From NCBI GenBank assembly GCA_963777315.1, contig CAVZQC010000004.1, forward strand, positions 192,001 to 256,000: DNA of 64,000 bases, read 5' to 3'. A program made the position numbers. How positions within the stretch are numbered: position 1 is the stretch's first letter; the number at the start of each line of letters is the position of its first letter. The stretch comes from Vulcanimicrobiota bacterium (GTDB taxonomy: Bacteria; Vulcanimicrobiota; Vulcanimicrobiia; Vulcanimicrobiales; Vulcanimicrobiaceae). Below are positions 1 through 51,000 of the stretch, in pieces.

Positions 1-3000
1 GTACCTCGTGAGGAGCTCGAACGCCACAGACGATTACCGGAAAGCATAGAACGATCCATTACTGCCGCGACGACACCCTGGCCTTCGTCTGGAGAGGCTC
101 GCGACGTGGTCGCTCTGATAAACGATAAAACGGCGCTGCGAATCGGCCGGCTTTGCGGTTCCCGTGAACGTTTTATCGTAGTGCAGTTCGAAGAAGCATA
201 TCGCCACGAGGATTTCTCCCGCGCTATCAAGCGGTACCGGTTCACGCGGCGAGAGCTGGATGTCATAACGCTCATGCTGCAAGGCTTGGGAGCCGAGGAG
301 ATCGCCGAAAGGCTGTGCATTTCCAGCACTACGGTGATCGGCTACGTGAAAAAGTTGCTTCGAAAAACGAGCGCCAAGAATCGTGCCGATATGCTCGCCA
401 AGCTATTGGGTTGGACGATATCTAAAGCAGACACTAGCGACTGACCTTATACGACGACCGCTAAACGAGCTGCCGCTCGATAGCGTCATTTATGTGGGCC
501 ATTCTGATGCCGTAGAACAATCGCAGTGAAGCGTCTATCGTTTACCCCCTAAACACGGTAGAGCGTTCTCCAACTCTTCATGCTATGTTAACGACGTGCA
601 TCGGTAGATACCATCCTTGCACCTACGGGACGCACTACAGTTAGGATCGGTATATGCTCTGCTCATTGCCACGTTCCGCTTCCCAATCGGATCAAGCCTT
701 TACGAGCCTGTTGAATCAGCGTTCTCGACCCCACGTGCTGTTTTTTGACGAAGACGCGAATATCGCATTTGCCGACGCCGGCGCTTTAGCGCTGTTTCAG
801 GAACATTTCTGCTCCGTGGAGCACGAGGTGGCCGAAATGATTCGCAGCCGTGCGCAGAGCGATACGGCTTCGGAGCAATTGTTCGGTCCCATCGCTGGGC
901 GCATCTTGCGGATCGTTCCCCTCAATGGGCCGAACGGCACGCGTTTCTACGCGGCCTTTGTGGAGAACGAGGCACGCCGTGAAGATCTGAGCGACGCAGT
1001 GGCGCGGTTTTCTTTTACGCCCCGTGAAGTAGAGGTGTTGAACTGCATACTGAGCGGGATGAGCGCCGCAGAAATCGCTGAAGACCTGTGCATCGCGCAA
1101 GTGACCGTTTTCGATCATTTCAAGCACATCAGCCATAAGACGAAGGCGCGTAACCGTGCCGACATGCTGGCAAAGATTTTTAATTGGCAGCCCACCATCA
1201 AGAACAAGGATTTCGATGAATTCGGCGTGGACCGCAGGACGGTATGAGGGTCGCGTTCATCAATCACCACGGCGCCGTACCCGGCGGATCGGAGAGAAGC
1301 CTTGAGGTATACCTGCGTCGCGTGCCTCAGGGGATTGACCCGTTTGTGGTGTTGTTTGAGGACGGGGTGTATGCCGATCAGTTGCGGGCGCTGAATATTC
1401 CGGTGCACGTCGTACCGGCATCGCGGCGACTGATGTCTGTAACGCGCGCAGAGTTACACATCGGCGATGCGTTCGACGGAACGCGGCAGGTGCTTCTCGT
1501 GCGCAAATTGTTGAAGTCGCTCCACATCGACGTCGTCGTGACCAACACTATGAAAGCGCACGTCATCGGGGCCATTGCCGCTTGGTCGTGCAACGTCCGC
1601 GTCGTTTCTTGGTGGCACGATCTTCCGGAAGGACTATCACTCTGGATGCTTCGAGCCGTTAGCCGGCTATGCGCCGTGGAGCGGGTCGGCTGCTCGAGAG
1701 CAGTTGTACGGCGCTTTGCTTTGCCGCGTACGACAACGCTCGTCCCGCCGCTTGATCTTCGGCGCTTTGCCCAAGCTCCGCCGCGTGAGCATGCTAGAGC
1801 ATTGCTCGGTCTTCCGCAAGACAAACTGATTTTCTCGATTGTGGGCCGCATAGCCAGATGGAAAGGCCAAGATCGATTTCTACGCGCCGCGGCTCGCGTG
1901 TGCGCCGGCACGTCCAACGTGCATTTTGCGATCGTGGGTTCTGCGACATTTTCGCAAGATGGCGAGTTTACACCCGAGCTGGCAGAGCTTGCCGATAGGC
2001 TCGGTATTACGAATCGCGTTTCGTTCATACCGTGGCTTGACGATCCCAGGATTGCCTATGCTGCCAGCGATCTGATTTGCAATGCGTCGTCTGCCGAACC
2101 ATTTGGACGCACTTCCGCAGAAGCGGGCGCATGCGGCGTTCCGGCATTATGCTTCGACGACGGTGGCGCAAGTGAAGCAGTCTTATCGCCGGTCACGGGG
2201 ATGGCCGTTCCCGCCGGCAACATAGAAGCGTTTGCAGCGGCGATGATGGCCTACGCCGGCGATGCCGCCGCGTTGCGGCGCGCCGGCGCTGCAGCGCGTG
2301 TCTACGTCGAGCGCCACGATGCCGATCGGTTGGCAACGACCTTTTTTGAAGTCGTTGGCCGGGCGAGCCGCATGCCTCACCCAGCCCAGCCGCTAACCGT
2401 TCCGTCCGCTGCGCGAGTGGCGGAGGCACCTACACCCGTATCGGTAAAAGCGTAGAGTTTACGCGGGCACGCCGGCGTAGTCGATCCGCTGTGTTTTGGC
2501 GGCATCTGCTGCAACGGACACATTCCGGCGGGACAACCCGATGCCGACCGCTATCCAGAACAACGCTCCCTGTAGATTACCGTGAGAATCTAAGGAAAAG
2601 TCGAGAACGATCAGCATTGCCTGAAGTGCGAGAACGGCGGCCATGACGTCGCGTTGGGCATGGTCGCCGGCTTGCTTGGCTTTCCACCACGTTCCAAGCA
2701 CGAAGGCAAACGCCAAGAGCAGAGTGACAACATAGCCGGTAAAACCGGCGAAGCCCATTTCAGCCAAACGCGCCTGGAAGCCGCCGTCTATCGAGTACAC
2801 CTTTTCCGTGAAACTGGTCAGCTGCGACGCGGTTCCCGCTATGCCCAGGCCCTGGCCCGTCGGGTTGGCCACCGATTCCCCCAACAGTTCCGCCGTCGTT
2901 TCCCGGCGCGCGCTTACCGACCTGTCGGTGTCCAGATGTGAAAAGGTCTGCAACCGCAGCGCGATACTGTTTTGACCCGCTTGTATCGTCAGCCAAGGGG

Positions 3001-48000: not shown

Positions 48001-51000
48001 CGTTCGAAGCTTCCTTGTACGAAGGCATGTCGGCAGACGATGCGGCGCTGGCCGAAGTCATGGGCGGCGGCGGCGACGGCATGCAAAGACTGGTCAGCGC
48101 ATACGATCGCACCCGCGAGCCTGCGACCGTGCAGTACGAAGGCGAGTACGAAGATCACCTCAACGTGCACGCGCCGCCCAAGAAAACGCAATACGATCGC
48201 GTCGGGCACAAGGGCATCAACCCGGACGACCTGTAGAAACTTCGTTACCCTGAGCCTTCAAGGCTCAGGGTGGCGGGGGGAACGACGCGGCAATGATCGT
48301 AAGTTGCATTCGTATGGTGCACCTCTCGCCGGCGCCGGCAGTGTCCGCGTCGCCGCAGCCCTGCTATCGCGACGCAAAACCAACATACATCTCCGAGCCG
48401 ATCTATCCGCGCGGGTACTATCCCGACAAGGCGGACGTCACGGTCCGCTTGGTGATCGGTCCCGACGGTAACTTGTCGGGCGGCGGCGTCTTGCAATCCA
48501 GCGGCATCGCCGCCTTCGATGCCTCGGCCATTCAAGCGGCCGAATTATCGCGCTTCGAACCGAAGATCGTCGATTGCAAACCGGTCACGGCGACGTACCT
48601 TTTCCGCGTGACCTTCCGGCCCCGTTAGACGCTAACTCGTCAGCGCGATGCGAATCGCGTGCCCCATCCACAACGCGCTGATCAGTCCGGCAATCAGCAT
48701 CAGAACGGTGAACATGACCGGCGAGGCGCCTAAAACGAACGCGATGCTCATCGTGAACGCCATGAATACGCGCAAAGCGAATTCGGCCAGCAGCAGCGCG
48801 CCCCAGCAGAGCGTCAATGTTCGAATGCCGCGCCGGAAATAGGACGACCGCCAGAGCACTTCAAAACGTCCCGCGGGCAGCGCCTCATTGGCGGTGAGGA
48901 ATTCGCGAACGATGTAATATCCCAGCGGCTTTTTGAACAGCAGCGGCGATATCAGCAGCACCAAACCCAAAATTCCCGTTACGAACGATTCGCGCACGAG
49001 CAGCAGCCGCTGCCCTCCTCCCAGAAGCGCGCCCACGACGCCCGCGATCAAGCCCACGAGCACGATGAGGCCGACGATGTCGAAGCTGCGCCGCCGCACG
49101 AAATTCAATACGTTGGAAATGACGGGAACGAGCGAGGCGCCCAGCAGCGGCAGCACGCTCGTTTTGGCAAAATGCGGAAGCAGCAAGTAATAGACGAGCA
49201 TCGTTCCGCCGACGTCCAAAATCAGCGTGGGGATGAGAGCCCGAAAGCTCGCCAAGAGAAACCGCTGCGGCGCTTTGGCCGCTTCGTGCGGGTCTTCTAC
49301 GGGCGGTTCGGGCGGCGCAGTCGGCGGTGAAGTCATGCGATCCGGTTCACGCTGCAGCTGTTGAGCATCGTCGCGGCACGGTCCTGTGTTTATGGCGGTA
49401 TGAAGAATAGACCGATAATGCCGACGCCGTAAAGAACCAGAACCAGAATCGAATCGAGTCCTGCGCCGAGCAGCATCTTGGTGGATCGCAGAATGACGCC
49501 CACGCAGTATACGGCCGTCAGCAGCGCGCCCAGGGCGGTCAAGTACAGATCCGGTCCCTTCGCGTCGGGCAACAGCGCCTGTCCGCTCAGCAGCGTTCCA
49601 AAGAGAAACAGCACCGGCAAAAATGCATTGCCGCCGACGATATCGCTCATCGCGAGCTCGTACCGCCCCGCGCGTACGGCGTACAGACCGGTCGTCACCT
49701 CAGGCAGCGCCGTAACTGCCGAGAGCACCGTTGCACCGAACAATATGCCCTGGAAGTGAATCCGATCCGCCAGCACGGCACTGCACAGCTCCAATCCGGC
49801 GCCGGCGGCCAGCGTGGCGAGCGCTGCGATGCCGAACAGCGCGAACACCGTACCGATCGAGCGTCGCTGCGGGTGTACGGCCGGGGCCGCCTCGGCAATT
49901 TCCTCGCGGGCAACGCGCCAGGCTTTGCGCTCTTCGTTGTGGCTGACGATCCAAAGACCGGCAATCCACGTGAGCAGAATGGCGATTTCCGCCGGCGTCA
50001 TGCGCGCGAAGATCAGCGATCGCGGCGAAAGTGCTCCCAAAATGCAGAACATCAGGATCGCGACCAGCACGAGTCCTTCCAGCACGATCGTCAATGACGA
50101 AACGGTCGCGGTGAGCGGACGTTTTCCGCGCAGTCCCGGTCCGTCGAGCAAGACCAGAACGACCGTTTGAATCGCGATGCCGCCCAAGATATTGCCGACC
50201 GCAACCGACAGACTGTGACTGAACACGGATCCGGCAACGATTGCGACCTCGGGCAGATTGGTCGCGATTGCCAGCAGCAGCGCGCCGCCCATTCCTTCGC
50301 CCCAGCCGAAATGCGCGTCGATCGCGTCGGTCGTTGAAGAGAGTATGCTGCCGGCCCACCAGACGAGGGCGCCGGCACACGCAAACAGCCCCACGATGAC
50401 CCATGTGGCGAGCCCCGACACGCGCGATCAGCGCCAGAAGCGATACAGATACGCGCTGACGGCGAGATTGGCGCCGAACACCCCCATGATGCCGTAGCCC
50501 AAGGTCGAGAACGACAGCCATCCCGTCATCGCCGAAAGCGGCGAAGCGCCCATCCGCATGCCGATTGCCGCCAATGCTTCCGCGCCGCCGATGAATAGCG
50601 CGATCACGATGGACAGCAGCGTCATATTGAAATTGTAGAACAGTTTGCGGGCCGGTTGGACGTACGCCCAGCCGTACGCGCCGAGCATGGCCACACCTTC
50701 GGTCGTGTCGACGAGCGACATTCCGGCGACGAAGAGCGCGGGAAGCAATAAGATGTACGTGACGGGCATGCCTCCCGCGCCGGAGGCAGCCGAGATCCCC
50801 AGCAGCGCTATCTCGGTCGCCGTATCGAATCCCAGTCCGAATAAAATCCCCAGCGGGTACATGTGCCAGCTTTGCGTTACGAGACGCAATGCGGGCCGCA
50901 GGAGGCGCGCGAGCAGACCGCCGCCCGTATTGAACTCGACTTCTTTTTCTGTGCCGCCTTTGCCGCGAACGAGCTCGAGCAACACCACGACGTTCGCGCC

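Follow-up and report, generated by a model that had tools for sequence, protein, structure and literature searches.

Across the Vulcanimicrobiaceae, rpoB and rpoC are separate genes, and the sequences compared here show that rpoC carries its own conserved predicted promoter. The informative part of the locus is formed by the promoters and leaders, not by the gene island that lies between the two genes. The window, i.e., the whole stretch of DNA that was analysed, is 64,000 nt long and comes from contig CAVZQC010000004.1 (C4), window position 1 being contig position 192,001. The two genes are located as follows.

C4:187191-191117 (+ strand), rpoB, 1308 aa, no internal stops on translation.
Window 44406..48236, equal to C4:236406-240236 (+ strand), rpoC, beta-prime subunit, 1276 aa, TTG start, no internal stops.

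Both genes are single and intact, with one match each in the genome, and the rpoC product contains all of the Pfam domains Rpb1_1 to _5. They are 45,288 bp apart rather than in the canonical arrangement, adjacent on the same strand, which bears out the statement in the genome-wide survey's note that they are unlinked here. Of the gaps reported there for relatives, those of 58.7, 4.7, 29.1 and 334 kb (the last with the genes on opposite strands) were found again, and its view of an old, family-wide split is supported. The genes are non-adjacent in 77 of the 78 scorable Vulcanimicrobiaceae genomes and adjacent in one, whereas they are adjacent in the sister family f2 (2/2) and in f3 (10/10). Adjacency was also seen in 60 of 68 genomes from the rest of the phylum, the remaining eight representing a second, separate split, and at all 73 scorable loci in other phyla. 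A further set of loci gave the same picture, with 34/34 of the family type non-adjacent and 37/38 of the others adjacent. The Vulcanimicrobiaceae are a family of soil bacteria with a cultured member, Vulcanimicrobium alpinum WC8-2 (PMC9758169), which is not one of the named loci compared; the genomes counted are kin, and the counts overstate their independence.

The two genes are on opposite strands in 17 genomes, which excludes one common transcript in those genomes. An assembly artefact was ruled out by the 53 family genomes in which both genes lie apart on a single contig. The rpoC::rpoB chimeric ORF of genome G010 proved to be a scaffold join at NN. The N-free piece after this join has rpoB, a promoter and rpoC adjacent to one another, but this arrangement was not accepted as the ancestral state because an end of rpoB and a start of rpoC each occur twice on the scaffold. 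Among the paper listings searched, none described the split or the leaders treated below.

The ribosomal-protein genes that might be expected upstream of rpoB are found elsewhere on the contig.

C4:930683-933595 (- strand), rplK-rplA and rplJ-rplL, the two pairs separated by an opposite-strand carbonic anhydrase gene.

The earlier placement of rplKAJL away from rpoB is correct, except that the carbonic anhydrase gene separates rplA from rplJ; the DUF1453 label given to the gene after rplL was not confirmed (no Pfam match even at E 1). The proposed old, family-wide break-up is supported for rpoB and rpoC. Loss of the link to rplL is nothing special: in f2 and f3, too, rpoB is served by a promoter of its own, and mycobacterial rpoB-rpoC form a separate operon (PMC6181997).

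The genes of the gap were compared among 21 gaps, classed by the leader of rpoC: A type, with a copy of the rpoB leader, in basal genera, and S type, with a structured RNA.

1..32165 (no strand given), low-G+C polysaccharide / A-PCP-P450-PPTase island (Pfam, G+C), only in G001 and G148 among the 21 gaps.
38878..39870 (- strand), two small genes with no passing Pfam family, in 7 and 8 of the 21 gaps, two A-type gaps included.
39800..42265 (- strand), TonB-dependent receptor (longest ORF; Pfam), in 6 of the 21 gaps.
41709..44190 (+ strand), three-gene block preceding rpoC: 3-hydroxyisobutyrate-dehydrogenase-like, DUF5069 and alpha/beta hydrolase (Pfam).

The G+C content of the gap is 0.600. Window 1-30000 has 0.593, where the mean is 0.626 (sd 0.012), and ranks among the lowest 1.3% of 532 30-kb windows, so that the island is of low G+C, as claimed. 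A Pfam scan of the 38 gap ORFs located in the window confirmed the earlier inventory of three GerE regulators, glycosyltransferases, a priming sugar transferase, a flippase-type polysaccharide-synthesis protein, an A-PCP didomain, a P450, a PPTase and the TonB receptor. The description of the gap as a landing pad is only partly supported: its size varies from 1.1 to 71 kb, but 36 of the 38 genes are shared with the same-genus genome and 30 of the 38 with one other genus. Within the genus the island is stable, and it is nothing out of the ordinary. A small core of the gap is old. The genes of the three-gene block occur in 11, 9 and 9 of the 14 S-type gaps but in none of the 7 A-type gaps, and by this distribution the block belongs to what is old in the gaps of the S clade; the pair of small genes are the only gap genes common to S-type and A-type genomes. 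An origin by large tandem duplication and random loss was rejected: only two gene families from the f2/f3 flanks recur in family gaps, and one of the two is the widespread GerE regulators. In 5/5 single-contig genomes, rpoB and rpoC both lie at 80-91% of the distance between dnaA and the point opposite it, a region of the chromosome where accessory genes are common. Equal dosage through symmetric placement around the terminus fits the positions in G005 (0.90 and 0.87) but, by rough reading, fails in G106 and G085.

The region between this block and rpoC contains four predicted features.

44212..44240 (+ strand), predicted sigma-70-type promoter of rpoC: -35 at 44212-44217, 17-nt spacer, -10 at 44235-44240.
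44247..44254 (+ strand), promoter-proximal element CT|RTGCCC, with the purine exactly 8 nt past the -10 hexamer.
44249..44266 (+ strand), putative leaderless micro-ORF of the rpoC leader, GTG start, M-P-R-T-R-stop.
44314..44377 (+ strand), 'S motif' structured RNA (model R1, 64 nt), with covariation, an interrupted stem and a 6-bp terminal stem.

Each of the 81 unique rpoC starts examined in the family is preceded by a -10 hexamer with the same downstream element. In this genome, neither the rpoB nor the rpoC promoter was called by a consensus scanner, the rpoC copy matching at 8/12 positions. The counterpart of the element at rpoB lies at C4:187068-187075, outside the window, and the two promoter sites share 20 identical positions over a 22-nt stretch (0 in the reversed control). 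The promoter and leader of rpoC are very probably a copy of those of rpoB. The leader match in this genome, 8/9, is the highest among the pairs. Concerted evolution of the two leaders was not supported within leader types (p 0.70 with six A pairs and 0.46 with 14 S pairs), similarity within pairs giving p 0.007 only with the A and S types pooled. The strict CT|RTGCCC pattern occurs three times in the genome, at rpoB, rpoC and rpmH, and RTGCC-like forms were seen at rpsB and rplS and at two rpsL promoters elsewhere; judged by these occurrences, the element is not specific.

In rpoB, the counterpart of the micro-ORF (C4:187070-187087) has an ATG start and reads M-P-R-A-R-stop. The frame M-P-x-G/A-x-stop was found in 67/67 rpoB leaders of one sample and 8/11 of another (absent in G003, G005 and G010), while f2 leaders have a frame of four codons (4/4) and f3 leaders none (0/5). 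The stop at codon 6 is TAA in 28 leaders, TGA in 27 and TAG in 12, and no other offset has a stop in more than 15%. A codon-wise tree (60 of the 67 rows, with one long branch) gave 11 changes among stop codons, and 10 amino acid changes at codon 3 and 13 at codon 5, but never an earlier stop, and codon 5 uses 20 different codons, several of them one step from a stop. When the search tolerated TGG, it appeared in 0/107 rpoB/rpoC matches versus 3/6 unrelated ones. The only fixed residue is the proline of codon 2, an invariant CCC that is a better fit to a DNA or RNA element than to a codon, and no regulatory run of codons for one amino acid was found in the micro-ORF. Leaderless starts appear to be used in this genome, given that rplU and rplM have ATG 9 nt after the -10 hexamer; the micro-ORF starts 8 nt past its hexamer, and the genome-wide spacing from -10 to start shows no peak. 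The rpoB transcript probably begins on the AUG or no more than 2 nt away from it, with the five-codon frame translated and its length, not the peptide, under selection.

The frame was not retained equally at rpoC. The leader copy of A-type genomes has it in 17/22 cases, while S-type leaders kept it in 2/59, only in the genus of this genome, and lack it in 57/59, so that for most of the family the two genes are not controlled by one and the same device.

Downstream of the micro-ORF, the rpoB leader is predicted to form a terminator-like hairpin, with z below -2 for the hairpin before the U-run in 60/67 leaders and a run of at least 4 T in 61/67. For the 16 of 22 A-type rpoC leaders with a U-run, the hairpin has z below -1.5 in 15/16. 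The predicted hairpin begins 9-19 nt downstream of the micro-ORF stop, which is about the reach of a ribosome sitting at the stop codon, so that a ribosome arriving in time would block the hairpin. Pairing of the micro-ORF with the 5′ arm, as expected of an antiterminator, was no better than in shuffles (-7.3 vs -8.2 kcal/mol), RNAalifold gave no consensus structure across 53 rpoB leaders, and the consensus scanner did not call the rpoB leader terminator of this genome. The complete rpoC leader of this genome also folds no better than shuffles (z 0.18).

One derived clade, which includes this genome, has the S RNA at rpoC in place of the leader copy. Its S leaders form a single clade (SH-aLRT 100), the A leaders lying outside. 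The motif carries an invariant 2x2 internal loop, and 98.6% of its cells are paired, with double changes at 7/15 pairs; no shuffle of 500 did as well, a test that kinship among the genomes may inflate, and slid controls gave 31-53%. It was found in 60/81 family genomes, one copy each and always just 5′ of rpoC, and as a single weak match in 69 other genomes. Where a start of rpoC is listed, 59/59 matches are within 90 nt upstream on a constant strand, and 54 of 59 S-type leaders precede a TTG start. Searches of Rfam with the window stretch and 12 loci gave no S RNA match, only chance hits (E 2.7-4.9), and none to the Lacto-rpoB, Rhodo-rpoB or ribosomal-protein leader models. By its position and conservation, the S RNA is very probably cis-regulatory, perhaps most plausibly as a protein-bound translational control before the weak TTG start. 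Beta or a polymerase subassembly is a conceivable ligand, although not a likely one.

These observations may be combined as follows. Copying of the rpoB promoter and leader to rpoC would have made rpoC independent, after which gene insertion and inversions would have let the genes drift apart. A ribosome loading in time on the five-codon frame would hinder the hairpin, so that transcription continues into rpoB, and RNA polymerase synthesis would track ribosome supply, in place of the rplJL link. In basal genera, where both genes have this device, the output of beta and that of beta-prime would stay matched; in one clade, the device at rpoC would have been exchanged for the S RNA ahead of a weak TTG start. 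As a whole, this account, with a copied promoter and leader that freed rpoC and a ribosome-sensing attenuator before rpoB, is the best reading and has not far from an even chance of being right. The attenuator, taken by itself, is put forward tentatively.

It is rather unlikely that nothing is sensed, and that constitutive housekeeping promoters of similar strength suffice, with excess subunit degraded. CT|RTGCC would then be a generic start-site sequence, as its presence at rpmH, rpsB and rplS suggests, along with T|G at the same spacing in many (uncounted) rpoB promoters of other phyla; where the element reads AUG, an early stop would merely keep ribosomes off the hairpin, and the stop is indeed retained in ATG leaders and mostly lost in GTG leaders. 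However, a mere early stop should drift in position, yet the frame has five codons in 67/67 leaders despite the 20 variants of codon 5, and the S RNA is under structural constraint. The stronger form of the ribosome-sensing account, in which a leaderless five-codon switch counts ribosomes by registering whether a free one loads ahead of terminator folding, its copying freed rpoC, and the S RNA, on binding beta or an intermediate of assembly, gates beta-prime translation from the weak TTG start and so controls the stoichiometry of unlinked core subunits in trans, appears unlikely.

The leaders might instead work as RNA structures without translation, bound by RNA polymerase or another protein or cut by a nuclease, in the manner of autogenous control, the stop-like triplet being a conserved loop sequence. 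RNA motifs before rpoB are known in two other groups (PMC5737381), the triplet frequently sits in a short hairpin's loop, and pairing between the micro-ORF region and the segment that follows the U-run is somewhat better than for shuffles (-14.1 vs -12.1 kcal/mol; 37/67). This is nevertheless doubtful, as both TAG and TGA occur but never TGG, and A-type rpoC leaders retain the stop without the short hairpin. Coordination at initiation, with a joint NTP or alarmone response and the leaders secondary, is improbable: the 8-nt spacer and purine are invariant at both genes and recur at ribosomal-protein promoters, and the long spacer presumably resembles that of rRNA promoters, but the S clade would start rpoB with A and rpoC with G, hence with unlike responses, and the stop codon and S RNA would be left unexplained.

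Even for E. coli, the way in which RNA polymerase is adjusted to the supply of ribosomes, and beta to beta-prime, is described as incompletely understood (PMC4670729), and the family may show RNA polymerase dosing without an operon. It offers three natural states for comparison, the operon of f2 and f3, the twin leaders of the A type, and the leader plus a new RNA of the S type, with each control element shorter than 130 nt and hence testable in reporters. Copying of a control region would be one route to breaking a very old gene pair, and the second split in the same phylum makes such an event rare yet repeatable.

One of the closest known systems is the rplKAJL-rpoBC operon of E. coli, which has an attenuator at rplL-rpoB and the control of which is described as incompletely understood (PMC4670729; 10.1101/2025.04.14.645983). 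A terminator-like structure would gate rpoB in both, but in the family rpoB is detached from rplJL and rpoC from rpoB, and the leader opens with the five-codon frame. Compared with leader-peptide attenuators as a class, the short ORF and the hairpin with U-run are present, while an antiterminator and a regulatory codon run were not found. The mycobacterial polycysteine attenuators (10.1101/834739) similarly have a leaderless short frame at the 5′ end before the controlling structure; the family frame differs in having no single-residue run, free codons 3 and 5, RNA polymerase as its target, and a leader in which no antiterminator was found. The motifs named Lacto-rpoB and Rhodo-rpoB (PMC5737381) are, like the S RNA, lineage-restricted conserved RNAs before an RNA polymerase gene, but they precede rpoB and the S RNA only rpoC; the supplements of that paper could list further rpoB or rpoC motifs. 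Mycobacterial rpoB-rpoC (PMC6181997), with one transcript and two promoters, is unlike the split genes of the family but shares with them an rpoB promoter region detached from the ribosomal-protein genes.

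The genome to which the window belongs (2.83 Mb, six contigs) gave a single match each for rpoB and rpoC, lying as follows:

C4 (contig CAVZQC010000004.1) 187191-191117: rpoB, 1308 aa, intact
Window 44406-48236: rpoC, 1276 aa counted from a TTG start, intact

All five Pfam Rpb1 domains are present in rpoC, and its closest named relative (97% identity) is from Ca. Rubrimentiphilum, a genus of the Vulcanimicrobiaceae (phylum Vulcanimicrobiota, formerly Eremiobacterota). The genes are 45,288 bp apart, confirming that they are unlinked, as the genome-wide survey's note had claimed, and its account of the gap genes agreed with Pfam-based gene annotation. 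The beta subunit (fetched locus L085:11191-15117) is extended at its N terminus by a long basic stretch and ends in an acidic tail of >100 residues; acidic beta tails are similar in the sister family (f2) and a third family (f3). Downstream of rpoC, window 50428-63476 carries a gene cluster for a [NiFe] hydrogenase, its maturation and nickel transport (NicO, HypA/B/D/E-type, small and large subunits, DUF5947 and DUF6084). Elsewhere in this genome, a carbonic anhydrase gene lies on the opposite strand between rplA and rplJ (L086:13852-14433, i.e., C4:931852-932433), and ARAGORN called a tRNA-Sec on another contig (G000:C2:721981-722074, G000 being this genome). No tmRNA was found in the genome, which is 90% complete.

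The split is real and family-wide, and richer than first described. For an adjacency survey, 151 genomes of the phylum were searched with the rpoC start and the rpoB end, and the places compared. Among the 82 Vulcanimicrobiaceae genomes, the genes were apart on the same strand in 36 (35 with gaps of 1.1–71 kb, one in reversed order), on opposite strands in 17, on different contigs in 24 and adjacent in one, while four lacked one match. The opposite-strand genomes belong to two genera (g5 and g19), and their genes are convergent and 340–610 kb apart, in one case across a contig end. Judged from coordinates, in 20 of the 24 different-contig genomes the flank runs on for >1 kb and lacks the partner gene, the other four being undecided. 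Within the family, adjacency was seen only in G010, whose scaffold is joined by NN and contains two rpoB ends and two rpoC starts. Outside the family the genes were adjacent in 60/68 scorable genomes of the phylum, including f2 (2/2) and f3 (10/10, the unpublished G129 among them); none of the conclusions depends on G008. The remaining eight belong to two genera (g69 and g71) of family f18, a third genus of which has adjacent genes (5/5); this second split was confirmed by fetched flanks for the genomes fetched. In other phyla all 73 scorable loci were adjacent, four of 77 having too little flank to score. In a second sample of 118 loci, 72 of which offered 1 kb of flanking sequence, 34/34 loci of the Vulcanimicrobiaceae type were non-adjacent and 37/38 others adjacent.

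In the second split, rpoC of the f18 genomes concerned is preceded, about 40–90 nt before the start, by a conserved series of an AAGGA box, a TAGGAT-like box and a GCGATTCG box (loci L373, L375, L379 and L380, from genomes G066, G075, G094 and G079). These boxes differ from the promoters of rpoB in that family.

The window includes 38 ORFs of the gap. The gap of the same-genus genome shares 36 of them, that of G148 30, that of G007 seven and the other 18 gaps 0–4, so the island is inherited within a small subclade. Older parts of the gap are a block of three genes before rpoC and a pair of small genes (window 38878-39870). The pair has no passing Pfam family, and its two members are the only gap genes common to genomes with either type of rpoC leader (A or S, see below).

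The 22-nt stretches before rpoB and rpoC are identical at 20 positions; both lie 3′ of a −10 hexamer, and in each a purine stands exactly 8 nt after the hexamer. Promoter and element precede all 81 unique Vulcanimicrobiaceae rpoC starts examined. In f2 and f3 both are found at rpoB, with rpoC directly following. The strict pattern occurs at three sites in the window's genome (rpoB, rpoC and rpmH), and a looser form at rpsB and rplS. The element therefore predates the split and is not specific to polymerase genes. A consensus promoter scanner called neither the rpoB nor the rpoC promoter in this genome, and the assignment of these predicted promoters rests on conservation. Two rpsL promoters outside the family (L416 and L460, one record titled Poribacteria) show the same −10 and CTGTGCCC element, which may be a wider mark of translation-machinery promoters.

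Leaders of rpoB were collected as 114 loci by coding pattern, yielding 67 unique leaders with a script-detected promoter after removal of duplicates, too-short and mis-started loci, one foreign record and variants missed by the script, six of which show the same five-codon frame by eye. All 67 have ATG CCC, three further codons and a stop (TAA 28, TGA 27, TAG 12), and a stop triplet at any other offset occurs in at most 15%. On a tree of 60 of these rows the stop changed 11 times and the amino acid ten times at codon 3 and 13 times at codon 5, and an earlier stop never arose. An all-genome scan allowing TGG at the stop place returned at least 115 matches; those listed comprised 107 rpoB/rpoC leaders (14 assigned by eye), two rpsL promoters and six unrelated sites. 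Among the matches listed, TGG was seen in none of the 107 leaders versus three of the six unrelated sites; as the scan required the frame, it is informative on this question only. On the negative side, the frame is absent in 3/11 Vulcanimicrobiaceae leaders of a separate sample; outside the family it has four codons in f2 and is lacking in f3. In rplU (L526:187-504) and rplM (L527:194-619) of the window's genome the ATG sits 9 nt after the −10 hexamer; both genes thus appear to be leaderless, indicating that starts of this type are in use.

The rpoB frame is followed by a hairpin and U-run, with folding z < −2 in 60/67; the leader of the window's genome folds at z −2.58. The 5′ arm begins 9–19 nt after the stop in 65/67. 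Neither an antiterminator nor a consensus fold was found in the rpoB leader set.

The 81 rpoC leaders fall into type A (22) and type S (59). Type A (by record name Ca. Elarobacter, Velthaea and Lustribacter) resembles the rpoB leader, with mostly ATG, five codons in 17/22 and a U-run in 16/22, 15 of those 16 having a stable hairpin. Type S (Ca. Cybelea, Tumulicola and Rubrimentiphilum) begins with GTG or GCG, retains the five-codon frame in 2/59, uses TTG as rpoC start in 54/59 and carries a 64-nt RNA. The window's genome is type S with the frame retained:

Window 44249-44266: five-codon frame
Window 44314-44377, + strand: 64-nt RNA before rpoC

The RNA has 15 pairs, formed in 98.6% of alignment cells (31–53% in slid controls), double-sided changes in seven and an invariant 2×2 internal loop; its covariation was reached by 0/500 shuffles, a test that kinship may inflate. 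A model of it (R1) matched 60/81 Vulcanimicrobiaceae genomes, many of them close to the training set, with one copy each except for two in G126, a genome with two rpoC starts. The matches lie no more than 90 nt before rpoC in 59/59 checkable cases, and 69 genomes outside the family gave one weak match (28 bits). Rfam returned chance matches only. In a tree of rpoC proteins (33 rows, drawn without f2), type S forms one clade (SH-aLRT 100), with two type A groups next to it in an open fork. Some genomes have GTC, GTA or AAC at the rpoC start position (L093, L180, L216, L229, L220, L244); their true start may be elsewhere or non-standard.

The family has separate genes with separate conserved promoters, a conserved frame and hairpin at rpoB, and a conserved RNA at rpoC. 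We infer that, at the base of the family, rpoC acquired a copy of the promoter and leader of rpoB, after which the gap was open to insertions and inversions. A ribosome on the leaderless AUG would, at the stop five codons on, mask the base of the hairpin, making read-through hinge on timely ribosome loading, and polymerase synthesis would thereby track ribosome supply. Rival accounts would invoke RNA-structure control without translation, constitutive promoters with decay of the surplus subunit, or NTP-sensing promoters. Under ribosome-dependent read-through, the same device would drive rpoB and rpoC alike in type A, and in type S an RNA, probably controlling the weak start codon, would have taken its place at rpoC.

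Neither the split nor the leaders were found described in the portions of the literature consulted, mostly open papers with supplements outside the search. Published accounts call this locus widely conserved (10.1101/2025.04.14.645983; PMC8046335; PMC6735719), and the parts of these sources consulted do not name a separation; the paper on a cultured family member, as far as consulted, uses rpoB as a reference gene only (PMC9758169). According to similarly partial sources, an attenuator precedes rpoB in E. coli, where control is termed incompletely understood (PMC4670729), two promoters control rpoB-rpoC in mycobacteria (PMC6181997), rpoB of other groups carries two unrelated RNA motifs upstream (PMC5737381), and for cysteine, attenuators built on leaderless short ORFs are known (10.1101/834739). 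Parallels exist for the split itself. No earlier description appears to exist of the copied leader, the five-codon frame or the rpoC RNA. In 5/5 single-contig Vulcanimicrobiaceae genomes (G005, G144, G031, G006 and G009), rpoB and rpoC lie at 0.80–0.91 of the distance between dnaA and the point opposite it, i.e., near the terminus, whereas in Vibrionaceae, according to the part of the source consulted, they are origin-proximal (10.1101/2025.04.14.645983).
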